From the sequence record EU863409: a stretch of 64,000 bases of DNA; one strand, given 5' to 3'. Position numbers and translations under genes: made by a program. Source of the DNA: Escherichia phage JS10. Below the pieces are notes generated by a model. The model saw only the letters and a list, made by a program, of their open reading frames with translations. It was not told the origin of the DNA and made no database searches. This document shows positions 12,459 to 59,795 of the stretch, piece by piece (the first letter of the stretch is position 1; every line of letters begins with the position of its first letter).

Positions 12459-13340
12459 TTATTTTAGAGCTAATAGTGCCGCACTGAGCTTGTCACGCTG
12501 GTTTTCCATATTCTTGATGCGGGTCAATACGTCTTGAATACTCTTTTTCTCATCTTCAATCTGACCATTTAAACGGTGGATTGATTCCTGAATGCTATCT
12601 GCATAATAGGTCTCAATAGGTTTCATCGTAGGGTTAGTAACAACCAAAGAATTATCAGGTTTAATTTTCCAATGATACGGTTCGGAATTGAATGGACTAG
12701 GCACAGCAGTGGTTTTGAATTTGTCATAGGCTGCATACTGGCCTACGCTGTCACATGATACTGTAGAGGTAGCGATAGATATACGACGTTCCATTTGTGG
12801 GTCCTTTTGTTGAGATTGATAAGGGGTATAAGACAAAAGATATTCACGAGTTAGTTTAACATTAAAATACACTGCATCGGCTCGCCCAGAACAATCAGCA
12901 TATTCATCGGTTGTAACCTTATATGATTCTACAGCCTTAATACGAGTCATTGCTTCTCTGAATAAGGTTTCGAATGCTTCACGAAGGGCCTTATTACCTT
13001 TTGAGGTAGGACGGAAACGAACTTGAATACCGTCAGCCAGAATATTAATGACTAGGTTACGAGCCGTAAAATTAATATTCTTGATATTAACAGGAACCGT
13101 AGAAATACGTCCTGCAGTGGCCAAGAGGTCTTTGATATTAGCTCGCAATGTTGCACCAAACAGGTGGGCTGGGCAACGGCAATAATCGTTCAAAGAACCA
13201 ATATAAGTTCCTTTACGACCTACACCATAAGTATAATTACCATTACAAATATGACCAAAGTCGGCCAGCCGATCGATAGCGATACGACGAGTCGTGTCAT
13301 GGTCGTATATAGAGTATTCTTTACGTGTTTTAATGTTCAT
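12459..13340 (-). CDS. hypothetical protein (293 aa)
   Basis: Long ORF, C-terminal coiled coil; alternative start 13364. Confidence 0.55.
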   Translation of the reverse strand: MNIKTRKEYSIYDHDTTRRIAIDRLADFGHICNGNYTYGVGRKGTYIGSLNDYCRCPAHLFGATLRANIKDLLATAGRISTVPVNIKNINFTARNLVINILADGIQVRFRPTSKGNKALREAFETLFREAMTRIKAVESYKVTTDEYADCSGRADAVYFNVKLTREYLLSYTPYQSQQKDPQMERRISIATSTVSCDSVGQYAAYDKFKTTAVPSPFNSEPYHWKIKPDNSLVVTNPTMKPIETYYADSIQESIHRLNGQIEDEKKSIQDVLTRIKNMENQRDKLSAALLALK

Positions 13341-22212: not shown

Positions 22213-22651
22213 AATCTACCACCACTAAATTAACATCAGGAGTAAACAAATTAATCAATTGATAAACCTTGTCCCAATCACCACCAGCAATACCACAACC
22301 AATGCGAGGAATATAAATTCTTGGTTTAAACAAAAGACCTTTTGCTTGTTGATTTAATTCTATCATACAGTTTACTAAAGCACCATAATCAAGATTAGGG
22401 CCTGGTTCGTATTGGGTGTATAAATTATAGCAAATTTGTCCATTATTACCTGTGGCTTGGGTATATGTTCCAAGTTTTGCTATATCACCTAAATAAGTGG
22501 TTTTATCGATAGCAAGAATAGGTGGATAAGCCTTAGCCAATTGTCCAGCTACACCTGAACCCATTGTGTGAAAGCAGTTACACCCGTGTGCAACATTATT
22601 GCCTTGAAGAAACAGGGCGACGATATCGCCCTTAATATAATCAATAATCAT
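22184..22651 (-). CDS. macro-domain protein (ADP-ribose binding/processing)
   Basis: 155 aa; N-terminal GDIV...GCNCF and GSGVAGQ glycine-rich motifs typical of macro domains. Confidence 0.65.
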   Translation of the reverse strand: MIIDYIKGDIVALFLQGNNVAHGCNCFHTMGSGVAGQLAKAYPPILAIDKTTYLGDIAKLGTYTQATGNNGQICYNLYTQYEPGPNLDYGALVNCMIELNQQAKGLLFKPRIYIPRIGCGIAGGDWDKVYQLINLFTPDVNLVVVDYESPLSASV

Positions 22652-24860: not shown

Positions 24861-25384
24861 TGCATTCCTATCACAAAGAACAGTGGCAGAGGTTTAGAAC
24901 CCTGGCACATAAATTTGTTAATCATTACCTGGTAAGCTTCATAGAACTTATCCATCGATGGAAGGCGCATTGGCTCTTCGATAATAATCAATAATCGAGT
25001 AACTGATAGACCACGATACTTATGGAAGTTATCTTCGTCTAAAAATGAACGCACGGTATCATATACAACAAATCCAGGACCTTCTACTTGAAGGTGTGGT
25101 TGGGCCTTAGAAACCCTTTTTATTATATTACAGATTTCTCGTGAGCGATGCGAAGAACTTGACATAACAATCACATCATTACCCTTGGAAACCCAATCAG
25201 CTGCGAACTGAGCAAGGGCACTTGTTTTACCTGTTTGACGCCCGCCGTCAAGTCGAAGAGTACCAAATTCTTGCATTCTTGAAGTGGGTTCGTACCAGGT
25301 ATATTGGTCTGAGTCTAAACGTTCAATGGCGCGTTCAGCGAAGGCGTGCATTAAGGTTAGATAAATGGGAGTTAAAAATTTCAT
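24857..25384 (-). CDS. small P-loop NTPase-like protein
   Basis: 175 aa; GGRQTGKTSA Walker A and LLIIIEEP Walker B-like. Confidence 0.5.
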   Translation of the reverse strand: MKFLTPIYLTLMHAFAERAIERLDSDQYTWYEPTSRMQEFGTLRLDGGRQTGKTSALAQFAADWVSKGNDVIVMSSSSHRSREICNIIKRVSKAQPHLQVEGPGFVVYDTVRSFLDEDNFHKYRGLSVTRLLIIIEEPMRLPSMDKFYEAYQVMINKFMCQGSKPLPLFFVIGMQ

Positions 25385-35531: not shown

Positions 35532-35595
35532 TATGCTCTCCTTCACTCCGTTGTTTTGATAGGTCTATAGTATCATATTCTACGAAAGAGTAAAC
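35532..35595 (-). promoter_or_regulatory. PeSL-like promoter cassette
   Basis: core TTGATAGGTCTATAGTATCA; -35 GTTTAC (35590-35595); hairpin degenerate. Confidence 0.5.
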
Positions 35596-35618
35596 ATCTT
35601 TTTTAAACTTTTAGAAAC

Positions 35619-35646
35619 AAAAAAGGCCCAACCTTTCGGAAGGGCC
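35619..35646 (-). terminator. intrinsic terminator
   Basis: GGCCC...GAAA...GGGCC hairpin plus U6; identical sequence repeated at 36242..36270. Confidence 0.55.
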
Positions 35647-38866: not shown

Positions 38867-39780
<914 letters not shown>

Positions 39781-42045: not shown

Positions 42046-42491
42046 CCTTTCCATCCTAATTTTTTCAGTGAGTTTTCAGTTATCAATCTAAAATTGATTC
42101 CCATTTTATCTGCTGTAGCTTTAGCAGCTTTCCATTTATCTTTATTTACACTCCATGTATAATGTTCGTTGATATATCTCTTTTTAGCGGCTGTAGTCAT
42201 TTTAGCAGGAGCCGCTGGAGGATGGGTTTCTTTAAAAGGTTTGACTTCAAAAAAGAATTGTTGGCCGTTATCAAACTTAACCCAGAAGTCCATAAAATAT
42301 CGACGTTTCTTTCCATCAGCATTACTAAAATACGGAATAACTACCTCTTCAGAGTTCCATTGGACTACGTTAGGATGATTGTCAAGCCAACGCATGAGCC
42401 ATGCTTCCCATGAGGAACGATATTGGATTTTCTTCCAGTCACCTTTATATTTTTGTAAGTTGGTAGGTTTAAATTTCCCTGAGTAAGCCAT
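42042..42491 (-). CDS. 4: head completion protein (gp4)
   Basis: 149 aa resembling T4 gp4 (MAYSGK..., KKRRYFMD); TATAAATA late promoter upstream. Confidence 0.85.
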
Positions 42492-42502
42492 AGTTGCCTC
42501 CT

Positions 42503-42510
42503 TATAAATA
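42503..42510 (+). promoter_or_regulatory. T4-type late promoter (TATAAATA) for gene 53 operon
   Basis: Exact TATAAATA 28 nt upstream of gene 53 ATG. Confidence 0.6.
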
Positions 42511-42517
42511 TTAATAT

Positions 42518-42525
42518 TATTTATA
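42518..42525 (-). promoter_or_regulatory. T4-type late promoter (TATAAATA) for genes 4-2-3
   Basis: Exact TATAAATA on minus strand 27 nt upstream of gene 4 ATG; divergent from the gene 53 promoter. Confidence 0.6.
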
Positions 42526-42537
42526 CTCGGAGGCCCT

Positions 42538-43140
42538 ATGCTCTTCTCATTTTTCGATCCTATCGATTACGAATCAAAAACAGTCAAGCCAGATTCCGGC
42601 TCATTAACAAATGCCGATGTATTGAGCGTGCCGATGACTGATATATTTAGAAATTATAAAGAATACTTTGATAGAGTGGCTAAAAATTATACACTAAAAA
42701 CTTATTATATCAATGGAGCCCCGCGTCCGGAAGAATTAGCCCATCTTCTTTATGGCAATGTCCAATTATATTGGGTTCTACTGATGTGTAATAATATATA
42801 CGACCCGTATTATGGATGGATTACCGGCCAAGAAGCCGCCTACCAAGCAGCCATCCAAAGATATTCTACTGCTGGTGGAAACCAGGTCCTTTACCATGTA
42901 AACGAAAAAGGCGAGAAATTCTGGAATCTTGTCAACACACCAGAAAATCCGTATACTTGGTATGATAAAGGCGATACAGAAAAACGTTATCCTCAATACG
43001 AAGGCCCGTTGGCTGCAGTAGATATTTACGAGGATGCTATTCGCAAAAATGAATATAAGCGTGAAATAAAAATTATAGACCCTAATGATATTGAGTCTTT
43101 TATTTCTGCCCTTATTCGTGAAATGGAGAAAGCCCTCTAA
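42538..43140 (+). CDS. 53: baseplate wedge protein gp53
   Basis: 200 aa resembling T4 gp53 (MLF.FFDPI, TYYI.G.PRPEELA); GGAGG SD; TATAAATA upstream. Confidence 0.85.
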   Translation: MLFSFFDPIDYESKTVKPDSGSLTNADVLSVPMTDIFRNYKEYFDRVAKNYTLKTYYINGAPRPEELAHLLYGNVQLYWVLLMCNNIYDPYYGWITGQEAAYQAAIQRYSTAGGNQVLYHVNEKGEKFWNLVNTPENPYTWYDKGDTEKRYPQYEGPLAAVDIYEDAIRKNEYKREIKIIDPNDIESFISALIREMEKAL

Positions 43141-44882
43141 TGATTAACATGTCTGATAATTTAAGTTGGTTCGTCGGTGTAGTTGAAGACCGAATGGACC
43201 CACTCAAACAGGGCCGAGTACGCGTACGCGTCTGGGGTATGCATCCATATGAAAAAGTACAAGGTCCTGTAAAAGGCCTTCGTACAGAAGATTTACCATG
43301 GATGTCGGTATTAATGCCTACATCTTCTGCCTCTGTTTCAGGTATCCAAACCGCTATGACTGGTATGGTCCCTGGTACACAAGTTTACGGACACTTTCTT
43401 GATAAGTGGAAATTAAACGGGCTTGTCCTCGGCACATATGGTTCAGCTTCAAAACAAAAGGCGAATCCAAACGAAGGTTTTAGTGACCCAACAGGACAGT
43501 ATCCGCTTTATTTAGGTAATGATGCCGCTGCACTAAACCGAGGTGGTGAAGTTGGGTATGATGCCACTTCTAACGTAATACAAGATGCAAACACTGATGT
43601 AGGTATTAATCCGGATGGATTAGATTTAAGCCAAGTTAAGCCTGATGATAATCCTAATTTCACAATAGAAAACATGCTTCATCGTGATGAAGGGCTTAGA
43701 CTGAAGGTATATTGGGATACCGAAGGATACCCTACTATTGGTATAGGTCACCTTATTACACCACAACCTATTAGAGATATGAATCAGATAAACAAAATAT
43801 TATCTAATCAAATAGGCCGAGAAGTTAAAGGTAACCCTGGTGCAATATCAATGGACGAGGCTTCCAAGTTATTCCAAGAAGACCTTAAAAAAGTTCAAAA
43901 CGATATAGGCAGGCATAGTGTTGTAGGTCCGGTTTACAATAAAGAAAACCGTTCAAGACAAATGGCTCTTGAAAACATGGCTTTCCAAATGGGTTTAGGT
44001 GGACTTGCCAAATTTAAAACGATGCTTGGCGCAATGCTAGTCGGAGATTATAAGAAAGCATTTGATGCCGCTCGTGATTCAGTATGGTTCAACCAAACTA
44101 AAGGCCGAGCATCAAGGGTATCAATGATTATCCTTACGGGTAATATGGAATCATACGGTATTATGGCCCCTAAAGAAAGAGAATTTAAAGGACGTTCGTA
44201 TAGGATGATTCAAACCTTTGCGGCTCCTGCAAATTCTGACCCAGCCGACCCATGGACTCCGGAAGATACAAGGATTCTTTTTAAAGAACCTGATTCTAGT
44301 TATAAAGGCGAATACCCATATGTCCAAACCATGCAAACTGAAGGTGGGCATATCCAAGAATTCGATAACACCCCAGGGCAAGAACGTTACCGATTAATCC
44401 ACCCTACAGGTAGTTACGAAGAAGTCGCTCCTGACGGACGTAAAACTTCTAAGACAGTAGCCGACGGGTATTATATGACCCAAGGCGATTCCAATACTTA
44501 TGTTGGCGGTAATAATAAAGTCAATATAGGTGGCGATGAAACCTATTATAATATGGCAAACGTTCGACGTCAAACTGACGGTTCTGAAAGCATCCATATT
44601 CGTGGTAATGAAACCAAAACAGTAGAAGGCGACGGGACCCTTATTGTTAAAGGAAATGTTACGGTTATTGTTGAAGGCAATGCCGATATAACTGTTAAAG
44701 GTGATGCAAAAACCTTAGTCGAAGGCAATCATGATTATACAGTAAATGGAAATGTTAAGTGGTCGGTAAACGGAAACGTCGATATGACTGTTGCCGGTAA
44801 TTGGTCTGAAACTATGTCGACTATGAGTTCTATTGCGTCCGGTCAATATACTATTGATGGTTCGAGGATTGACATTGGCTAA
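43140..44882 (+). CDS. 5: baseplate hub and tail lysozyme gp5
   Basis: 580 aa; central lysozyme domain (YWDTEGYPTIGIGHLI); C-terminal beta-helix repeats. Confidence 0.9.
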   Translation: MINMSDNLSWFVGVVEDRMDPLKQGRVRVRVWGMHPYEKVQGPVKGLRTEDLPWMSVLMPTSSASVSGIQTAMTGMVPGTQVYGHFLDKWKLNGLVLGTYGSASKQKANPNEGFSDPTGQYPLYLGNDAAALNRGGEVGYDATSNVIQDANTDVGINPDGLDLSQVKPDDNPNFTIENMLHRDEGLRLKVYWDTEGYPTIGIGHLITPQPIRDMNQINKILSNQIGREVKGNPGAISMDEASKLFQEDLKKVQNDIGRHSVVGPVYNKENRSRQMALENMAFQMGLGGLAKFKTMLGAMLVGDYKKAFDAARDSVWFNQTKGRASRVSMIILTGNMESYGIMAPKEREFKGRSYRMIQTFAAPANSDPADPWTPEDTRILFKEPDSSYKGEYPYVQTMQTEGGHIQEFDNTPGQERYRLIHPTGSYEEVAPDGRKTSKTVADGYYMTQGDSNTYVGGNNKVNIGGDETYYNMANVRRQTDGSESIHIRGNETKTVEGDGTLIVKGNVTVIVEGNADITVKGDAKTLVEGNHDYTVNGNVKWSVNGNVDMTVAGNWSETMSTMSSIASGQYTIDGSRIDIG

Positions 44883-44916
44883 TATTTTACCTATGAGCAC
44901 TGATTTAGGAGATTCC

Positions 44917-45414
44917 ATGGAAGGAGCCTCAATCGATGTTACGTTTACCGCTCAATTAGAAACAAACGAAACATTAGTTGAAATAAATATAACAGAATAT
45001 GAGCCAACAGAAGGCATTATTGTCGATGGGGCTCGTTTATACGGAACCTATGAATCGGTATTCGGATTTTCTGAAGATGCTTTAAAATATCGATTAGGTG
45101 ATGAATTTAAAACAGCAGGTTCATGGAAAGATTTACCAGAGGACAAGAGCACTCAATTATACCTCTGGAAAGCCCCTGGTAATCTTCAGAAGACTTTTTC
45201 CTATACCGTCACATTAATCTATGACTTTCAGGAAGAGTCATCAGGAGGTGATACAGGGAGCTCAGGAGGAAGTAATTCTAGAGCCGGTAACGAAACAGAC
45301 CCTCCTCCAGCACCGGTAAGAAAAACTCTTACTAAGGTTTATACCAAGGTTATAGTGGGTAATTGGAGTCGCTGGGGAGACCAATTAAGAGAATATGTAT
45401 ATGCAAGACCATAG
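44917..45414 (+). CDS. 5.1-like hypothetical protein
   Basis: Start at ATG with AGGAG SD; 165 aa. Confidence 0.5.
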   Translation: MEGASIDVTFTAQLETNETLVEINITEYEPTEGIIVDGARLYGTYESVFGFSEDALKYRLGDEFKTAGSWKDLPEDKSTQLYLWKAPGNLQKTFSYTVTLIYDFQEESSGGDTGSSGGSNSRAGNETDPPPAPVRKTLTKVYTKVIVGNWSRWGDQLREYVYARP

Positions 45415-46015
45415 ATACTTTTACCTATATTGCATAACCAATAAATTAAATGGTATGATTTATGTGGGTGTTCATCAAACAGATAATTTAGAAGATGGAT
45501 ATATGGGGTCTGGTAAGGCCCTTAAAGAAGCCCAAGCCGAACTAGGGATGGATAATTTCGACAAACATATTATTAAATTCTTTGGAACCCAGGATGAGTG
45601 TTATTTAGCTGAAAGAGAAATAGTTAACAAATCCTTCGCAAAGTCTTCTTTAACATATAATATAAAGAAAGGAGGCATGGGTGGTTGGATTGTAAGGAAT
45701 GGATATAAACATACCGAAGCTACTAAAGATAAAATGAGAATTTCCGGTAGTGGATGTAATAATGGATTTTATGGAAAGAAACATTCTGAAGAAACTATAA
45801 AAGCTATTGCCGAAGCCAACTCTAAATGGGAAAGAAAGCCAAATCAAAGGGAAAAAATGTCTAAAAAGCATTCAGGCAAAAACAATCCTATGTTTGGTAC
45901 TGTGGCTCCTAATGCAATAACAGTTAAATACAACGGGGAAGAATATACAAGCATTTCTTCTGCGGCAAAAGCAGCAGGATTATCCACTTCAACATTTAGA
46001 AGAAGGTATCTATAA
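45395..46015 (+). CDS. GIY-YIG homing endonuclease (Seg-like)
   Basis: N-terminal [25 protein letters not shown] motif followed by repeated NUMOD-like G(Y/K)KHSEET modules. Confidence 0.75.
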
Positions 46016-46308
46016 TGTCGGGCTTAAGTTATAATCAATGCGTAACAGCAGGTCATGAAGCATGGCCTCCTACAGTAATAAATGCCACCCAGGGTAAAGT
46101 ATTTACAGGCGGCATTCCTGTATTAGTCGATGGGGACCCAATAACTCCTCATACAGAAATTAAAAAACCATATGAAACCCACGGTGGGGTAACCCAACCT
46201 AGAACATCAAAGGTATATGTTACAGGCAAAAAGGCTGTCCAAATGGCAGACCCTATTTCGTGCGGAGATACAGTCGCACAAGCCTCATCTAAAGTATTCA
46301 TAAAATAG
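46015..46308 (+). CDS. 5.4: baseplate spike tip PAAR-like protein gp5.4
   Basis: 97 aa, size and position match T4 gp5.4. Confidence 0.8.
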
Positions 46309-46316
46309 GAATTAAA

Positions 46317-48275
46317 ATGGCTACTCCTACGAATTACCAATTAACAAGAACCGTTAACGCTATCCCAAAAGTATTTGTGGGAGCTACGTTTGAAGAAATT
46401 AAAAAGAATATTATCGATTGGCTTTCCAGCCAGGAAGAATTTAAGGATTACGATTTCGTTGGTTCTCGAATGAATATCCTTATTGATATGCTTGCTTATA
46501 ATACTCTTTATATACAGCAATTTGCTAACACAGCTTTATACGAGTCTTTTATAGGAACAGCAAACCTTCGTTCTTCGGTTGTCCAAGCTGCACAAGATAA
46601 CGGATACCTTCCTAGTTCTAAATCCGCGGCAAAAACAAGTATTATGTTGACCTGTACTCAGGCCCTGAATGAAAAGAATATTCGTATCCCACGTGGTACT
46701 AAATTCTTGGCCTATGCTCGTGATACTTCAGCAGACCCGTATGCTTTTGTTACCACGGAAAACGTTATTGCCGTACGTGATGTTAATAACCAATATCTCC
46801 CTATTGTATCTTTAGCACAAGGTCGTATTATTCGTACTGAACTTAAGTATGACCCTAAAACCCCTATTCTTATTCGTGACCCAGATATCGATAGACAAGA
46901 AGTCAAACTTTATGTCGATGGTGCAGAATGGACTAACTGGACTAATAAATCCATGGTTCATGCTGGTAGTACATCAACCATTTACTATATGCGTGAAACC
47001 GTAGATGGTAATACCGAATTCTTCTTTGGTGAAGGCGTTGCCGAAAAATCAGTTGCGGGCGGTGTATTAGAAGCTAACTATATTGGTGGTTTAAAACCTG
47101 TTAAAGATGCTACCATTGTTATAGAATATCTTCGTACCGATGGTGAAGTTGCTAACGGCGCAGTGGACTTTAGTTATGCGGATTCTTTGGCATATATTAC
47201 GGTTGAAAAAATTACAGAAAACTATGATGGGAATCCGGATTATGTAGGTGCTGATGGTGGTGGTGACCCTGAAGATATCGAACGTATTCGTGAACTGGCT
47301 GTAGTTAAACGCGAAGCCCAGATGCGTGCCGTAACTGGTACGGATTATGATACATTCGTTTCAGAGCGATTTGGTTCTATTGTACAAGCAGTACAAACCT
47401 TTACGGACCCAAATAAACCAGGTTACGCCTTTGTTACTATTAAACCTAAATCAGGATTGTATTTGACTGCGGTTCAACGTGAAGATATCCAAAATTATCT
47501 TTCAGAATTTAACTTGGCGCCTATTACTCCTTCGGTTATTTCTCCAGACTACTTGTTCTTAAAGCATAAAATTAAGGTTTCATATGCACTGAACAAATTA
47601 CAGGAATCCGAACAATGGCTAACGGCTCAAATCCTTTCTCAAATAGACCGTTATTATATTAACGAAGTTGAAATATTCAACCACGGATTTGCCAAGTCTA
47701 AAATGCTGACTTATATTGATAATGCAGACCACAGTATCCTTGGCTCTTCGGCTACGGTAACAATGGTTCGCGAGGTATTAAACTTCTTCAAAACACCTGA
47801 AGCGGGTATTAAATACTATAATCAATACACCAACCGTTCTGTAACTTCTAGTGAATTTGAGTTCGTCCCAACAAACGTATCGGATGATATTAAATCTTAT
47901 AACGTACGTATTGTTGCCACAGATAAAGACGAACGAGGCGATGGTAAAATGGTTATAGGTCCTTTCCGTCCAGGTGATGTAATTGAAAACCAATACATCC
48001 AACCTTATACCGGAGATGACTTCGATAAAATGGCAGCTCCTGCAGACCAATCAGTCTACTATGTTATTGGCGAAATTGATTATTACTCAGACTTTATTTT
48101 CTGGGATATCGCCGCAATAGGCCTTACTTCTGACCGTTTTGAAGTCCAGTCTATTGAACTTTATGCAGGGCCAGACCAAGACAACATCTTTACCAAAGAC
48201 GGTTCTCTAATCGTATTTGAAGATGACCTTCGTCCTCAGTACACAACTATAGAGTTGGAACCAATTACAATATAA
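46317..48275 (+). CDS. 6: baseplate wedge protein gp6
   Basis: 652 aa; T4 order. Confidence 0.85.
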   Translation: MATPTNYQLTRTVNAIPKVFVGATFEEIKKNIIDWLSSQEEFKDYDFVGSRMNILIDMLAYNTLYIQQFANTALYESFIGTANLRSSVVQAAQDNGYLPSSKSAAKTSIMLTCTQALNEKNIRIPRGTKFLAYARDTSADPYAFVTTENVIAVRDVNNQYLPIVSLAQGRIIRTELKYDPKTPILIRDPDIDRQEVKLYVDGAEWTNWTNKSMVHAGSTSTIYYMRETVDGNTEFFFGEGVAEKSVAGGVLEANYIGGLKPVKDATIVIEYLRTDGEVANGAVDFSYADSLAYITVEKITENYDGNPDYVGADGGGDPEDIERIRELAVVKREAQMRAVTGTDYDTFVSERFGSIVQAVQTFTDPNKPGYAFVTIKPKSGLYLTAVQREDIQNYLSEFNLAPITPSVISPDYLFLKHKIKVSYALNKLQESEQWLTAQILSQIDRYYINEVEIFNHGFAKSKMLTYIDNADHSILGSSATVTMVREVLNFFKTPEAGIKYYNQYTNRSVTSSEFEFVPTNVSDDIKSYNVRIVATDKDERGDGKMVIGPFRPGDVIENQYIQPYTGDDFDKMAAPADQSVYYVIGEIDYYSDFIFWDIAAIGLTSDRFEVQSIELYAGPDQDNIFTKDGSLIVFEDDLRPQYTTIELEPITI

Positions 48276-48302
48276 GCCTCTTCGGAGGTTTAAGGAGATT
48301 TA

Positions 48303-51300
48303 ATGTCTGTACAAGCGCCTTATGTTACTAGTCTGAGAATTGATAAGCTCTCGGCTAACCATGTGAGCATTCTTTGGGATGACGTAGGCGCCAACTTCTA
48401 TTATTTCGTAGAACTGGCCCAAACGAAGGATGCGGGTGTAGAAATTCCCGACGATAGATTATTTTGGAGAAATTTAGGTTACACCCCTAATAACGAATGG
48501 TTTGAAGAGGCATTCATTTCTCCTAATTCATTTTATAAAATGCGAGTTGCGGTCGCTGCTCAGGGGTTTGAGCAGTCTGAGTGGGTTTACACTGAAGAAT
48601 TTGAAACTTTCTCTACCAACGCATATACATTTGAGCATATGCGTGAATTCACATTGTCTAATAAATTTATTGAAGAAAAATTCACAAAAAATAATCAGAA
48701 TTATGTGAACTTTAATACCGATGCCATTATGGCTTCCTTAATGACGGAAGATTTTAACTTTACGCCGGCGTATTCGCATTTGTCATCTATATCAAATTAT
48801 GTTTTAAAAGCCGACCGATTCCATGAAATCCAAGGAAGCATTCAAGCAGTTTGTAAAGACCCTAGACGTTCTATTTTAATGGAACTTGGTGGAGTTCTGT
48901 ATCTTTTAGAAAGATTCCAAAGCACAGCTAAAGTTTCTAATGATAAAGGACAAAACTGGCACTATATTAGATTGTTTAACGATAGAGTGGGTAATCCGGT
49001 ATCTAGAACGGCTCATTACCAAACAGAAACTACTACATACGTACTAGGTTATGACCAAATATTTTACGGGCGTAAATCAAGTGATATTAGATGGTCTGCT
49101 GATGACGTTCGCTTTAGTTCTCAGGACGTAACATTTGCTAAAATCGGTAGTGATATAGACCTTCCGTTTGAAATAGAAATATTTGGGTCATACGCAAAAC
49201 TCCCATTGCCTATTTCCACTATCGCCGAAGCTATGTGTGCTTCTGACGATTTCATTTATGTTGCGGGTAGAGACAGAGTTTATAAAGCAAAAACATCCGA
49301 GGCCCCTATAGACACCGACCCTAGCTCACCAACTTACGGCGAGAAGATATTTGAAAGCGGATATTCAACTATCACAGGGAACCCTAAAGCTGTTTGTTAT
49401 AAATTAGATTCTATTCAAGGGCATACGTTTGCTTTAATTACAGGTGAAGTTAAAGAAGAAAAAATGGACCCTACAGTAGAGGCTAACGTAATTGATTCTG
49501 AATCTAAAGGTGTCTATTGGTTGGATGTAGAAACAGATACTTGGACTCGTGTATTCGGAAATACTGAAGAAGAACGTCGTCGTATAGAGCATGGATATAC
49601 TAGCATGTCTACAGATGGTGAAGAATTATTTTTCAGTTCAAGCAACTTTAGATACGAAGTAGAGGTTGATTCTGAACTTCCTTGGAAATATCCTGAAATT
49701 GTTACTTCGGCCGTTAAATACGTTAAAGACGAACAGTGGATTCATAATAAGCATTATTTGATGATGAGCTTTAGGTCTAACTCTAAATCAGATTTTAAAG
49801 AATTTAAACCAGGTCGTATGGCTTATTATGCTGAACCATTCTTCAGTTGGTCACGTCGTGATGGAACCCGTTCTTGGATTACTACAGGTGACCATGCGAT
49901 GGTTGTTTATAACGATGCTTTGTATCAGAAAATAATCGACCTTAATAGTGGTTCATCGCCGGAACGTATTGTTCACGAGATTTGGAATAAAGGATTTTGC
50001 AAAGTTACATCCCCTAATATCGAATTTAATGGCTTTAAAAAATATTCCTCTGGTATGATGATTCACAAATCTACCGGTGAATTAGTTGGTTATTTTGAAT
50101 TCGACTATCGTGTGCGTGATGAAGTCCGTGTTATTTGGAAGCCTAAAGAAATTATGTTTACGGCAGAGCTCCAAAACCAAGAGCATGAAATTCCATGGGC
50201 CCCTAAAGAAGAGACCGGCGAACAAGACCCTGATTTGAAACCGTTATTGGTCAAAATGGTTCCGGATAGTTATTTACTCCAAGATTCCAATTTTGAAAAA
50301 TTCTGCGAATATTATCTACAGTTTATTAGTGATGGTTCCGGCACTCATTATAATAATTTGTTAAACCTTATTCGTAATCAGTATCCTCGTGAAGAAGACT
50401 CATGGGAATACCTATGGTCTGAAATTTATAAACGTAATATCTATTTGTCAAAAGAAAAACGCGACGAAGTTGTTAGATTTTTCCAAGCTCGTCAGTCTGA
50501 TTTTTGGTCAACTAAAGGTACTGAAGCTTCATATAAATTCCTGTTTAAATTGCTTTATAATGAAGATGTCGAAATTGATATCGAGTCCAAGAACTCTATC
50601 GAATATGATATCATCGTAGAATCCGACAATATCAGTGAAGATATCGTAGGCCAAACGATTTATACTCCTACAGGAAGAAGTAATGTTACTTATATAGAAC
50701 GAAATTACAAAGATGGTAAATTGCAATGGCGTTTAACCATTCATAATCTTTTGGGTCGTTTTATAGTCGGTCAGGAAATCAAATCTGAACGTACTTCATT
50801 TAAGGGTATGATTGTTCAAGGTGTTCGCGGCAAAGAGCTTTTGAGTAACAATATCGATTATATCAACCGTAACCGTTCTTACTATGTGATGACTATTAAG
50901 TCTAATCTCCCGACCTCTCGTTATCGCAATGACGTTTTGAGATTTGTTCACCCGGTAGGTTTCGGCTTTATAGGTATAACTTTGCTTTCTATGTTTGTTA
51001 ACGTTGGTTTAACACTAAAACATACAGAAACCATTATTAATATCCTTAAGAACTATAAATGGGACTCAGGTTTGCCATCTGAATGGTATGATAGAGTTGC
51101 TGTAATAGGTTTTGATGGTAATATAGAACGAGACCCTCGTACAGGTGCTCCGATGTACAACGTTGGACCTAAAGCAGGTGAGCCATTTGATATTCCTGCC
51201 GATTATGATGCAGAAAATGATTTCTCTGTATTCCAAGGTCAATTACCACACGAACGTATTAAAAAGCATAGTCCATTGTTTGACCAAAGTGCTGTGACTT

Positions 51301-52398: not shown

Positions 52399-52420
52399 GG
52401 GCCGCAAGGCCCTTTCGGGG
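52399..52420 (+). terminator. weak terminator/attenuator-like hairpin after gene 8
   Basis: GGGCC-GCAA-GGCCC then TTTC; short U tract. Confidence 0.3.
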
Positions 52421-52489
52421 GTATCATTATCCTTTAAGCGGGAGACTTTGGAGCATCTATTTATAATAGTGCAAAGGTGTTATTACTAT

Positions 52490-52497
52490 TATAAATA
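52490..52497 (+). promoter_or_regulatory. T4-type late promoter (TATAAATA) for gene 9
   Basis: Exact TATAAATA in the gp8-gp9 intergenic region. Confidence 0.55.
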
Positions 52498-57395: not shown

Positions 57396-59795
57396 ATGAT
57401 TAACAAATTGGAACTTAGTGAGTTACCATTTGTTGACGGCGTACCTGATGCTCCTCAAAAGCGTATCCAATGGATACGCGAGGGTGATTGTATGTCTGCG
57501 GCAAAAACAAAATACGGCAATGAAGGTAATTTGAACGCTGCTGCTTTAGGAGTTCAGAAAAACGTAGAAGCTCTTGATGCCAACGATTTAAAAACTGCTG
57601 ATAAAGTTAATGAGCTTATAGAAAACGTTAATAATATCAATGACGCTTTAGAAATGTCAACAGATATTTCTATCATTCAACAAATAGAGAAAAACCGTGT
57701 TGATATTGTAGACCTTAAAAAAGTCACCGAAGATACAACAGAAAAATTGGACACCTTAACAACCAATTTTGATTTCTTGCGTGAAGATGTTGGTTATCAT
57801 GACCCTTTACAAGACGGCCCATATTTAACTGTACGTGAAAATATTGTTCTTCTTAAAACTGAAATAGGTCATTATGAAAACCAGGATATAAACGGCAATC
57901 CACTGCCTCCTGGCGAAACTAATGAAGCCACTGGTATAAAACGCCGCATCATGGATAATACCACTGAATTGGTGGACCATCGTCTCCGCCTTGATACCCT
58001 TGAAAGAAACTATGAAGATTCTGATGTTGGACAATTGGGTATTAAATTAAATGAAATTCGCGCCGAATTAGGACCACATTCTGATACGGTAGGTAAACAA
58101 CCTGCATATACCCGAATTTCAGTATTAGAAACGGCTGCAGTTAATTTTAATACAGCTATTGACGAAATTAAGGATAATATTGATTTCTCTGGTATGCCTA
58201 TAAAGGACCGAGTAACTACTTTAGAAAGCAAAACCTTTACCTTAGAAAATTCGGTTAATGTTGATTTAAAACCTAGAGTAACTTCTATAGAAACTCAAAT
58301 CGGATCCGAGTCTGCACCGGCATCTATTAATGGTCGTTTAAGCGGACTTCGTACTGATGTAAATGATTTAAAAACCGTAGTAGGTGTTAGTTCAAGTGAT
58401 GGCCTACGTTTCCAAGTTACTGATATCAACCGCCGTTTAGGTAGTGAAGTATCTCCGGCTGCAGGAACCATTAATAAGCGTTTAAATGATGTTATTATTC
58501 AAGCAAACCAATCCACCTCGTCTATCCAGGATATTCAGGTAAAAATTGGTAACAACCAATCCGGTATTAAGGGTACTTTACTTAAACTCACCGATAAGGT
58601 TGACGGGACGAACCCTAACGGAGCTACCGTAGAAGAACGTGGTCTTATTAATGCGGTTACTTCTTTAGAAACCCAGATGCAAGGTAAATTAGGTGATGCA
58701 CCTTCTGATGGTAAACTCTATGCACGTCGAAATGCGGCATGGGCTGAAGTTGTTAATAATTCCACAGAAATAGAAACCGTTAAAGCCGATTTAGTTGTTA
58801 CCGACGGTAAAGTGACCGCGTTAACTTCCAGAGTAGATGGTAATGATACCTCAATTTCTTCTCTTGATACTCGTACCGGTGCATTAAACACTTCGGTTGG
58901 CGAGATTAAAGCTGATATAGTTTCTATAAAGGCTAAAGATGATGAACAGGATGGTCGTTTAACAGCACTTGAATCTAGTGATGTGACCATTAACGGTAAA
59001 ATTGCTGCTCTTGAAACTAAGACAGATACCACTGATGATGATGTCACAGCACTGGCTTTAGACGTTTCTTCTTTAGAGAACCAATTGACTCCTATAAAAG
59101 CCGATATTACCAAAAACAAAGGTGATATTGTTGCCTTAACTGGTCGAGTGGCTTCTACTGAAGGCGAAATTAATGCAATTAAAGTTGATACAGCCAAAAT
59201 TGCTCCTTTAACAACTAGAGTTACTACGGCAGAAGGTAAAATCACTACTTTAGAAACAGGGCTTGCCGCTGTTAAAGTCGAATCCGATAAGGTAGCAGGT
59301 ATTAATACCCGCCTTAGCACTGCAGAAGGTGACATCGGAACACTTAAAACAGGGTTGGCTGAAGTTAAGGGTGAATCCGATAAAGTAGCAGCTATAGATA
59401 CCCGTTTAGGTGTTGTTGAAGTTGAATCAGGTAAAGTAGCAGGAATCGATGCTCGTTTGGGTGATGTTGAAGGCGAAGTTAGTACTCTTGAAACGGGTTT
59501 AGCTGCCGTTAAAGTCGAATCCGATAAGGTAGCAGGTATTAATACCCGTTTAGGTACGGTCGAAGGTAAAGTTGGTACTCTTGAAACAGGTTTGGCTGCT
59601 GTTAAAGTTGAATCTGATAAAGTTGCTGACTTAGGAACCCGTTTAACCGCCGCCGAAGGTAAAATTACGGCCTTAGAAACAGAATTATCTAAACGTCCAC
59701 CGGTGGCTCCTGCCGCAGACGGACTTCCGTATGTTCTGGTTGATAACGCATGGGTATTATTGTCTGATTTTGTGACTTTAAACTCAGCGCCATAA
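57396..59795 (+). CDS. wac: fibritin (whisker antigen control, wac), expanded
   Basis: 799-aa coiled-coil protein with C-terminal foldon-like YVLVDNAWVLLSDF; internal tandem repeats; followed by terminator. Confidence 0.8.
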   Translation: MINKLELSELPFVDGVPDAPQKRIQWIREGDCMSAAKTKYGNEGNLNAAALGVQKNVEALDANDLKTADKVNELIENVNNINDALEMSTDISIIQQIEKNRVDIVDLKKVTEDTTEKLDTLTTNFDFLREDVGYHDPLQDGPYLTVRENIVLLKTEIGHYENQDINGNPLPPGETNEATGIKRRIMDNTTELVDHRLRLDTLERNYEDSDVGQLGIKLNEIRAELGPHSDTVGKQPAYTRISVLETAAVNFNTAIDEIKDNIDFSGMPIKDRVTTLESKTFTLENSVNVDLKPRVTSIETQIGSESAPASINGRLSGLRTDVNDLKTVVGVSSSDGLRFQVTDINRRLGSEVSPAAGTINKRLNDVIIQANQSTSSIQDIQVKIGNNQSGIKGTLLKLTDKVDGTNPNGATVEERGLINAVTSLETQMQGKLGDAPSDGKLYARRNAAWAEVVNNSTEIETVKADLVVTDGKVTALTSRVDGNDTSISSLDTRTGALNTSVGEIKADIVSIKAKDDEQDGRLTALESSDVTINGKIAALETKTDTTDDDVTALALDVSSLENQLTPIKADITKNKGDIVALTGRVASTEGEINAIKVDTAKIAPLTTRVTTAEGKITTLETGLAAVKVESDKVAGINTRLSTAEGDIGTLKTGLAEVKGESDKVAAIDTRLGVVEVESGKVAGIDARLGDVEGEVSTLETGLAAVKVESDKVAGINTRLGTVEGKVGTLETGLAAVKVESDKVADLGTRLTAAEGKITALETELSKRPPVAPAADGLPYVLVDNAWVLLSDFVTLNSAP
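59223..59675 (+). repeat. tandem coiled-coil repeat region inside wac
   Basis: At least three copies of an approx 30-aa unit TLETGLAAVKVESDKVAGINTRL; two copies share a long identical nucleotide block. Confidence 0.6.

Follow-up and report, generated by a model that had tools for sequence, protein, structure and literature searches.

The gene lying between genes 5.1 and 5.4 of Escherichia phage JS10, a JS98-like Dhakavirus coliphage, was analysed within a 64-kb stretch of DNA (the window, 64,000 nucleotides in full), and is very probably a free-standing GIY-YIG homing endonuclease gene (HEG) that entered precisely where the stop and start of the two genes overlap and has spread by homing. Its product was 100% identical to the GenBank entry 'segC homing endonuclease [Escherichia phage JS10]' and carries the name segC in UniRef. 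A public annotation of the gene already exists for JS10, and experiments have been done on the segC gene that T4 carries at this junction; it is therefore known and ordinary. The coordinates of the gene, its domains and its surroundings are collected in Table 1.

Table 1. Features in and around segC of phage JS10, given as positions in the window.
Feature	Position	Strand	Basis and remarks
Nearest upstream T4-type late-promoter motif (TATAAATA), before gene 53	42503-42510	+	Motif search
Gene 5.1	44917-45414	+	Probable ATG start (MEGAS...); mechanical ORF list reaches TTG at 44833
Candidate co-conversion patch, 19 bp, 3' end of gene 5.1	45369-45387		Possible extent about 45327-45404
segC-type free-standing homing endonuclease ORF	45395-46015	+	206 aa, ATG start (ORF listing)
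HEG-linked substitutions in the 5.1/HEG overlap	45405-45414		GCAAGACCATAG here; empty Dhakavirus alleles have GCGAGGCCATAA
601-bp insertion relative to the empty JS98 5.1/5.4 junction	45411-46011		Pairwise alignment; boundary ambiguous by ATA microhomology
GIY-YIG catalytic domain (~aa 9-95; Y12, Y23, H27, E73, N89)	45419-45679	+	Pfam, profile, fold
First NUMOD3 module (aa 103-139; core GCNNGFYG, aa 120-127)	45701-45811	+	Pfam best stretch 103-139
Second NUMOD3 module core (GKNNPMFG, aa 161-168)	45875-45898	+	Second Pfam stretch, motif located
C-terminal helix-turn-helix-like DNA-binding tail (aa 174-206), predicted	45914-46012	+	AF2, Foldseek
Gene 5.4, PAAR spike-tip protein	46015-46308	+	Pfam PAAR_motif; directly downstream of segC

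An earlier note, made from the letters of the window alone, had placed a 206-aa ORF between gene 5.1 and the PAAR gene 5.4, with its start overlapping the preceding gene and its stop abutting gene 5.4. The coordinates proved exact in the ORF listing and both contacts were found as described. The TAG stop of gene 5.1 (45412-45414) gives a 20-nt overlap with the start of the ORF, and the segC start codons are carried in these last 20 nt of gene 5.1; they include a second in-frame ATG at 45401, which yields the 204-aa product recorded in GenBank for JS10. At the other end, the last A of the segC TAA (46013-46015) is the one base common to the ATG of gene 5.4, forming TAATG. This stop/start overlap at gene 5.4 has been kept, with the stop now coming from segC and not from gene 5.1. 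The flanking products were close to those of JS98, with 98.2% amino acid identity for gp5.1 (phrog_1168 in PHROGs) and 100% for gp5.4. By Pfam and PHROGs, the upstream neighbour of gp5.1 is gp5 (OB, lysozyme, C-terminal repeats), and downstream of segC lie the PAAR protein gp5.4 and gp6. No further Seg-like paralogs were found within the whole 64-kb window.

The same note had taken the ORF for a free-standing Seg-type endonuclease with a GIY-YIG N-terminal motif and repeated NUMOD-like modules, and profile searches supported this on every point. Both GIY-YIG (PF01541, 27.3 bits against a Pfam cutoff of 22.6) and SegE_GIY-YIG (PF19835, 29.5 bits against 25) scored above cutoff, NUMOD3 (PF07460) reached 62 bits over two stretches against a cutoff of 20.4, and phrog_314 'homing endonuclease' matched residues 1-204 with E=6.8e-49 in PHROGs. 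As sequence matches, these scores are far above what chance would give for an ORF of this length. A phmmer search of the PDB with the single segC sequence gave no match, and a family profile was required to reach I-TevI, matching its catalytic domain (1LN0/1MK0) with E=5e-5 and its DNA-binding domain (1I3J) with E=6e-4. The AF2 model of the protein had a pLDDT of 87.5, rising to 95-98 over residues 11-90 of the GIY-YIG domain, and the best four Foldseek matches to it were I-TevI domains (prob 0.99-1.0). Against 1MK0/1LN0 the TM-to-target was 0.63-0.65, with an rmsd of 3.3-4.8 A over 95 columns and E-values of only 0.02-0.06, modest because the GIY-YIG domain is small; the match to 1I3J had a prob of 0.99. 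In the AF2 model the C-terminal tail forms a pair of short strands and a pair of helices at 177-205. It is homologous to 'gp5.3' of reference T4, corresponds on visual alignment to T4 '5.3' and to the C-terminus of T4T SegC, and is covered by the tblastn match of the segC protein to T4 genomes, which extends to aa 204.

Comparison with related genomes revealed the gene as a discrete insert. At 98% identity to the 64-kb window, JS98 and MN04 nevertheless lack exactly 601 bp, and the junction they carry is a seamless TAATG overlap of the same form as in six other genera. The conserved empty-junction sequence reads TATGTATATGCGAGGCCATA followed by ATGTC. An endonuclease-free allele of the 5.1/5.4 junction thus exists among relatives, and the gene is not universal at this site, for the junction was uninterrupted in 703 phage records, JS98 and MN04 included. 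The insert itself was found in none of the 122 phage records matching the region, in a collection evidently without JS10, and its GC content was 34.6%, whereas the flanking genes had 39-43%. A filled junction, with a segC-like gene in the same arrangement, was found in T4, T4T, Moon and EnC15. Phage CUA3 was rejected as a carrier of a same-sized insert, since its reference-scaffolded partial genome has 643 Ns across the region and is uninformative.

Judged by position and sequence together, the JS10 ORF is the counterpart of T4 segC, beyond being merely Seg-like. Identity to T4/T4T SegC was about 50-54% over the full length, and tblastn against T4-group segC gave 97-99% query coverage at about 50-51% identity. 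Global identity was 53.7% to T4T SegC against 31.8% to the Seg-like protein of CLB_P2, which represented the other Seg proteins in this comparison. The two genes share the 5.1/5.4 junction, the 20-nt overlap with gene 5.1 and, presumably, a promoter-less place in the late baseplate operon, and their products share the domain order GIY-YIG, NUMOD3, helix-turn-helix and the conserved N-terminus M-x-MQDH-x-YFYLY. They differ in that only about half of the residues are identical, in that T4 SegC has Lys where JS10 has Glu49, in length (198 aa for T4T SegC, 206 aa with two NUMOD3 modules for JS10) and in the overlap of the stop with the start of gene 5.4 (13 nt in T4T, 1 nt in JS10). T4 segC has been described as an active GIY-YIG endonuclease gene inserted at 5.1/5.3, with a 20-bp overlap with 5.1, as a promoter-less cassette (PMC2988022). 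The table entry for its target in that review is garbled and reads 'of 5.1 and 5.3'. A description of the T4 SegC cleavage site was not found by literature text searches. The primary paper on T4 SegC is reportedly Shcherbakov et al. 2002, Genetics 162:543.

The closest sequences found to the JS10 gene were the segC-like genes of Moon (a Citrobacter phage, Moonvirus) and EnC15 (an Enterobacter phage, Karamvirus), at 57-59% amino acid identity across the whole protein and about 66% nucleotide identity. The junction architecture is the same in all three, including TAATG with gene 5.4, and the 3' end of the gene is near-identical between JS10 (TTTAGAAGAAGGTATCTATA) and Moon (TTTAAAAGAAGGTATCTATA). 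However, these phages belong to other genera and their flanks are more divergent (gp5.4 76-77%, gp5.1 57%), and their segC-like genes are too distant to be the donor. Searches of the insert by megablast and blastn against 50,697 phage records, a collection evidently without JS10 itself, gave nothing above about 67% nucleotide identity, and an IMG/VR scan for segC relatives gave no confirmed locus. As no donor or relative above 58% identity was found in the 50,697 phage records, IMG/VR and 5.8 billion proteins, the donor is unsampled.

The catalytic residues were compared with those of I-TevI, the endonuclease of the T4 td intron. The two proteins share a two-domain design, the catalytic and NUMOD3/helix-turn-helix domains being recovered by profile and by fold. 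I-TevI, however, is intron-encoded whereas JS10 segC is free-standing, identity between them is only about 21-22%, and the JS10 protein has no zinc-finger linker. Y6, Y17, E75 and N90 of I-TevI correspond to Y12, Y23, E73 and N89 of the segC protein (HMMER alignment to 1LN0/1MK0), so that the Tyr, Tyr, Glu and Asn are all retained; in family alignments of 34-36 sequences, Y12 is nearly invariant and the other three are invariant. The I-TevI segment that holds R27, the canonical GIY-YIG Arg, is an insertion relative to the SegC family profile, and in its place the family has the motif G-x-H-x6-D-x-Y-x-GSG. A counterpart of R27 was absent by alignment across the whole SegC family. Between residues 26 and 57 the JS10 protein has no Arg, like T4 SegC over the corresponding stretch. 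The missing aligned Arg, lacking in the active T4 SegC too, would on these alignments be a trait of the family and not a lesion particular to JS10.

Loss of catalytic residues, which the earlier note had named as a possible sign of a pseudo-endonuclease, was not seen: 10 of 10 invariant and eight of the nine nearly invariant columns of the family alignment were kept. The sole deviation was at position 49, where Glu stands in place of the consensus Lys, a residue that in I-TevI is matched by the Lys of 'NKHG'. This replacement could be taken as a mark of an inactive relic, an intact ORF whose enzyme no longer cleaves or whose target has been lost, and which would merely be carried along with the late baseplate operon while awaiting decay. 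Models of the HEG life cycle predict such a decay phase after fixation, and the gene is a singleton, with no second Dhakavirus carrier among about 120 matching records, unlike an efficient spreader. We nevertheless consider a relic unlikely, as segC has no frameshifts and no premature stops, its AF2 model is confidently folded, and the early decay exemplified by reference T4, where a 1-nt deletion splits segC, has nothing comparable in JS10.

The late-promoter motif before gene 53 is the presumed source of a polycistronic transcript that would include the promoter-less HEG. No terminator-like site was found on the '+' strand in 42400-48400, and in a scan for sigma-70 promoters and terminators sites were no commoner than in shuffled sequence. 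The mechanism proposed for homing by JS10 segC is transferred wholly, by analogy, from T4 SegC, to which the protein is only 50-54% identical, and would run as follows. Having no promoter of its own, segC would be transcribed late, within a 53-5-5.1-segC-5.4-6 message, and ribosomes re-initiating near the stop codon of gene 5.1 would yield a small amount of the protein. In a mixed infection with a relative that lacks segC, the C-terminal modules would bind the uninterrupted 5.1/5.4 junction of that relative, and the GIY-YIG domain would cut nearby. The break would be repaired by the recombination-dependent replication of the phage with the segC-bearing genome as template, and the repair would copy segC and a flanking stretch into the recipient; marker exclusion and localised gene conversion would result. 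Two features would shield the carrier genome itself, namely the splitting of its junction by the insert and the change of GCGAGG to GCAAGA in the overlap. For gene conversion and marker exclusion by JS10 segC we infer from the T4 literature (PMC2988022), where HEG-driven marker exclusion in T2 x T4 crosses favours the alleles of the carrier.

That advantage in the T2 x T4 crosses (PMC2988022), together with a stop/start coupling that the insert leaves intact at the PAAR gene 5.4, could also suggest that segC is a domesticated factor and not purely selfish, retained for a benefit to its carrier in cutting co-infecting relatives or for modulating the expression of genes 5.4 and 6. This seems quite improbable, as there is no evidence of a benefit and nearly all relatives do well without the gene; moreover, the molecular mechanism would be the same as in spread by homing, and only the selective rationale would differ.

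Sequence flanking the insert offered some indication of how segC may have arrived. A 19-bp patch, located 22 bp upstream of the insert, has 10 differences from JS98 and MN04 and is identical to IME540 and MX01, Dhakaviruses that are HEG-less at this junction. Only five patches, this one included, have at least 10 mismatches per 20 bp across the 62 kb that aligned with JS98, and no other dense-mismatch patch lies from 39.6 to 57.9 kb (about 18 kb within the baseplate module); from the patch counts, the probability of its lying beside the insert by chance was estimated at roughly 0.006-0.04. The patch looks like a candidate for a short co-conversion tract from the donor. As it is also present in HEG-less phages, however, it could instead reflect ordinary mosaicism, or be an allele that confers resistance. 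The idea that all 12 clustered upstream mismatches were specific to the HEG-carrying genome was dropped, since 10 of them form this allele, shared with IME540 and MX01. The only HEG-linked substitutions are at 45405, 45408 and 45414. Those in the overlap leave the gp5.1 protein unchanged and, read in the HEG frame, specify the Gln-Asp of its N-terminal MQD, and the resulting GCAAGA was present in all four filled alleles (JS10, T4T, Moon and EnC15) and absent from all eight empty alleles, drawn from six genera.

By the homing mechanism, the JS10 lineage would most likely have gained segC from an unsampled Dhakavirus donor with a 5.1 allele of the IME540/MX01 type. JS10 and JS98 may then represent, though we put this forward tentatively, a natural 'after/before' pair of one recent homing event, in which segC entered a JS98-type genome from a Dhakavirus donor with a very short, one-sided co-conversion tract of about 19-78 bp, and with a target specificity that may be unlike that of T4 SegC. 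If this were true, the 5.1 patch of IME540 and MX01 would represent the allele of the donor type or else one that resists cleavage and was favoured by selection under exposure to segC. It is highly improbable, on the other hand, that segC was ancestral at the T-even junction and was repeatedly and precisely lost, from all other Dhakaviruses among others, with no gain in JS10: segC-like genes do occur at the identical junction in four genera, and they have diverged pairwise to a similar degree (52-67% identity) as the flanking gp5, gp5.1 and gp6 (57-73%), a pattern compatible with long vertical residence, but the seamless TAATG of the 98% identical JS98 and MN04, shared with six other genera, would require many independent base-perfect deletions, the insert lies 5-8 points below its flanks in GC, a foreign patch lies 22 bp upstream of it, and the identities of the HEG (nearest EnC15 and Moon) do not track those of gp5.4 and gp5.1 (nearest T4).

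With its family, position and spread all textbook T4 biology, JS10 segC, as an annotated gene, matters little beyond bookkeeping. Phages of the JS10/JS98 type come from isolations aimed at phage therapy of E. coli diarrhoea, and when the phages of a cocktail co-infect, marker inheritance can be biased by a homing endonuclease; the practical value of JS10 segC, as a source of marker bias in phage-therapy cocktails, is modest. The JS10/JS98 pair, together with IME540 and MX01 for the flanking patch, forms a clean natural set of substrates that could be used for mapping the recognition site of a SegC-type enzyme and for measuring the length of co-conversion tracts. Within the same genus, Seg-like HEGs were also found in CLB_P2, between genes 5.4 and 6, and in IME540, between genes 53 and 5. 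These resemble JS10 segC in being free-standing GIY-YIG genes squeezed in where two late baseplate genes overlap, but occupy other insertion sites and belong to other lineages, the CLB_P2 protein being only 32% identical to that of JS10.

The earlier note had placed a 206-aa reading frame between genes 5.1 and 5.4, overlapping the former and abutting the latter, and the ORF listing gave the same coordinates and length, on the + strand. The presence of a homing endonuclease gene (HEG) at this junction is confirmed, well above chance. Its start lies 20 nt inside gene 5.1, which ends at 45414, and the last base of its stop is the first of the gene 5.4 ATG (TAATG), a coupling to 5.4 that the HEG recreates with its own stop. 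The overlap sequences at filled and empty junctions show that the HEG start codons are borrowed from codons for the conserved gp5.1 C-terminus (…YVYARP-stop). Pfam and PHROGs assigned the surrounding genes to gp53, gp5 (OB, lysozyme and beta-helix repeats), gp5.1 (phrog_1168), the PAAR protein gp5.4, gp6 and gp7.

Features of the segC locus in the window
Feature	Position	Strand	Source
segC-type HEG ORF, 206 aa, ATG start	45395..46015	+	ORF listing
Second in-frame ATG of the HEG	45401		
TAA stop of the HEG	46013-46015		
Codon for Glu49	45539-45541		
601-bp gap	45411-46011		JS98 alignment
19-bp patch	45369-45387		
Late-promoter motif before gene 53	42503	+	motif search

The reading of the gene as a free-standing Seg-type endonuclease was correct, and the name segC already stands on it in GenBank and UniRef; a search of 5.8 billion proteins returned a 100% identical protein of 204 aa titled 'segC homing endonuclease [Escherichia phage JS10]'. 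The gene has been annotated before, its family is well characterised, and its T4 counterpart was studied at this very site. A published homing-endonuclease tree included JS10 endonuclease sequences (PMC3468402), while the HEG table of a 2010 review of T4-related genomes entered JS10 without homing endonuclease genes (PMC2993671) and appears to have missed segC despite its GenBank/UniRef name.

Matches over the curated Pfam cutoffs were obtained for PF01541 GIY-YIG (27.3 bits), PF19835 SegE_GIY-YIG (29.5 bits) and, in two stretches, PF07460 NUMOD3 (62 bits), bearing out the GIY-YIG N-terminus and repeated NUMOD-like modules previously proposed, and phrog_314 'homing endonuclease' matched residues 1-204 (E=6.8e-49). 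The AlphaFold2 model (mean pLDDT 87.5; nuclease domain 95-98) had the two halves of I-TevI, the GIY-YIG endonuclease of the T4 td intron, as its top four Foldseek PDB matches (probability 0.99-1.0), with a TM-to-target of 0.63-0.65 for the catalytic domain. The profile of a 36-sequence family alignment likewise matched the catalytic (1LN0, E=5e-5; 1MK0) and DNA-binding (1I3J, E=6e-4) domains of I-TevI. Aligned in this way, as the earlier note had suggested, Y12, Y23, E73 and N89 pair with I-TevI Y6, Y17, E75 and N90; the catalytic Tyr, Tyr, Glu and Asn are kept and catalytic-residue loss was not found. Y23, G25, Y36, G38, G40, G51, E73, N89, G93 and G94 were invariant in the alignment and Y12, N16, H27, D34, S39, K49, N54, F55 and Y88 nearly so, and the JS10 protein retains all of them except K49, a Glu here and a Lys in >90% of relatives and in the aligned I-TevI 'NKHG'. 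The I-TevI R27 segment is an insertion relative to the profile, and the SegC family, active T4 SegC included, has G-x-H-x6-D-x-Y-x-GSG in this region with no Arg, so that its absence is a family trait and no lesion peculiar to JS10. Sequence and model give no sign of a pseudo-endonuclease, with K49E as the sole caveat, and an inactive relic is unlikely.

Around the cluster, the only TATAAATA late-promoter motif on the '+' strand precedes gene 53, and a terminator scan there found no '+'-strand terminator-like site through 48400, a motif layout consistent with co-transcription of the HEG. The architecture, position, sporadic distribution, compositional contrast and flank patch of the gene are directly observed; by analogy with T4 Seg biology (PMC2988022), it would be expressed late and polycistronically and translated weakly by re-initiation near the 5.1 stop. 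When a phage lacking segC co-infects, the NUMOD3/HTH region would recognise its intact 5.1/5.4 junction and the GIY-YIG domain would cleave there; the segC-bearing genome would serve as repair template, flanking markers being co-converted, and the carrier would protect itself since its own junction is disrupted by the insert. Domestication for a competition or regulatory role would be compatible with this homing explanation, and we regard it as quite improbable.

Megablast of region 44400-47000 matched 122 T-even records, the best (98% identity) being JS98, MN04 and other Dhakavirus genomes, and the insert was found in 0 of the 122. The JS98 alignment shows a single gap with ATA microhomology at its bounds. 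Queried with 201 bp centred on the 5.1/5.4 junction of JS98, 703 phage records (Dhaka-, Tequatro-, Mosig-, Gapriver-, Karamvirus and other genera) matched without interruption; the proposed check for endonuclease-free alleles thus found that the gene is not universally present, and JS10 segC is the only one in Dhakavirus among available genomes, which is mildly new. Empty alleles in six genera share, with minor variants, the junction TATGTATATGCGAGGCCATA followed by ATGTC. GCAAGA replaces GCGAGG in all four filled alleles (JS10, T4T, Moon and EnC15), changes that are synonymous in 5.1 and, in the HEG frame, specify Gln-Asp/Glu within its conserved MQD/MQE N-terminus.

In a tblastn search the closest counterparts occupied this junction in phages of other genera: Enterobacter phage EnC15 (Karamvirus), Citrobacter phage Moon (Moonvirus) and T4. 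Global amino acid identities are 58.6% for EnC15, 56.9% for Moon and 53.7% for T4T SegC. These are out of step with the flanks: gp5.4 and gp5.1 are nearest T4 and the HEG nearest EnC15 and Moon, a mismatch that argues against simple vertical descent. An ancestral HEG with repeated precise loss elsewhere is highly improbable.

T4 segC is a free-standing, active GIY-YIG gene inserted at 5.1/5.3, a promoter-less cassette with a 20-bp overlap with the upstream ORF (PMC2988022), the same geometry as in JS10. The T4 reference (NC_000866, L003:2501-3096) has a 140-aa segC and a separate 56-aa 'gene 5.3', while T4T (HM137666, L006:575-1171) and many other T4-group records have a single continuous 198-aa segC. 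The two versions differ only by one C, which the reference lacks within the direct repeat AGAGGGCCTAGAGGGCCTAGAGG; what is annotated in T4 as 'gp5.3' is therefore the helix-turn-helix end of SegC.

The insert has a GC content of 34.6%, against 39-43% in gp5, 5.1, 5.4 and 6. The adjoining 100-bp bin holds 10-11 mismatches to JS98 and MN04 (background ~1.7 per 100), 10 of them within a 19-bp patch that recurs unchanged in IME540 and MX01, HEG-less Dhakaviruses that outside it share only 90-93% identity with the window here. Separated from the insert by 22 bp, the patch is one of five with >=10 mismatches per 20 bp in the 62 kb aligned to JS98, the sole one between 39.6 and 57.9 kb; from patch counts we estimate the chance of this adjacency at ~0.006-0.04. 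The simplest reading would be a short co-conversion tract from a Dhakavirus donor with an IME540/MX01-type 5.1 allele, although the patch may come from ordinary mosaicism or may be a resistance allele. The other four (12755-12786, 39527-39577, 58959-58983 and 59448-59481) are probably mosaic recombination tracts. The donor of the HEG was not found in phage records, IMG/VR or the 5.8 billion proteins, the next-best protein anywhere being 58% identical; that its lineage is otherwise unsampled is mildly new.

An apparent insert-bearing exception, vB_EcoM_CUA3 (PP410321.1), was ruled out as a reference-scaffolded assembly with Ns over the site. This public 'partial genome' has a 643-N run (L017:1470-2112) exactly over the JS10-specific patch and segC, which suggests read mapping onto JS10 of a genome really without the insert.

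Different Seg-like HEGs lie between 53 and 5 in IME540 (L007:1-244; known by annotation only) and between 5.4 and 6 in CLB_P2 (L002:2805-3482), the latter encoding a different Seg-like protein 31.8% (about 32%) identical to that of JS10. As the JS10, IME540 and CLB_P2 insertions differ in site, HEGs have entered the short late baseplate operon of one genus at three or more separate places. The JS10/JS98/IME540 allele set would lend itself well to mapping the target site of a SegC-type enzyme.

Elsewhere, the gene 8/gene 9 intergenic region (52419-52491) has ~67 bp extra relative to JS98, with TATAAATA late-promoter motifs on both strands (52458, -; 52490, +). Across its 64 kb, the window also departs from JS98 at ~3075, ~10680, 22436-22524, 24883-25371, 35542-35620 and ~59420, with divergent replacement patches at 22.4-22.5 kb and 24.9-25.4 kb and a ~150 bp difference in fibritin (wac). 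JS98 is longer by ~205 bp at its gene 46.1, ~330 bp at orf81 and ~1 kb covering orf135/orf136.
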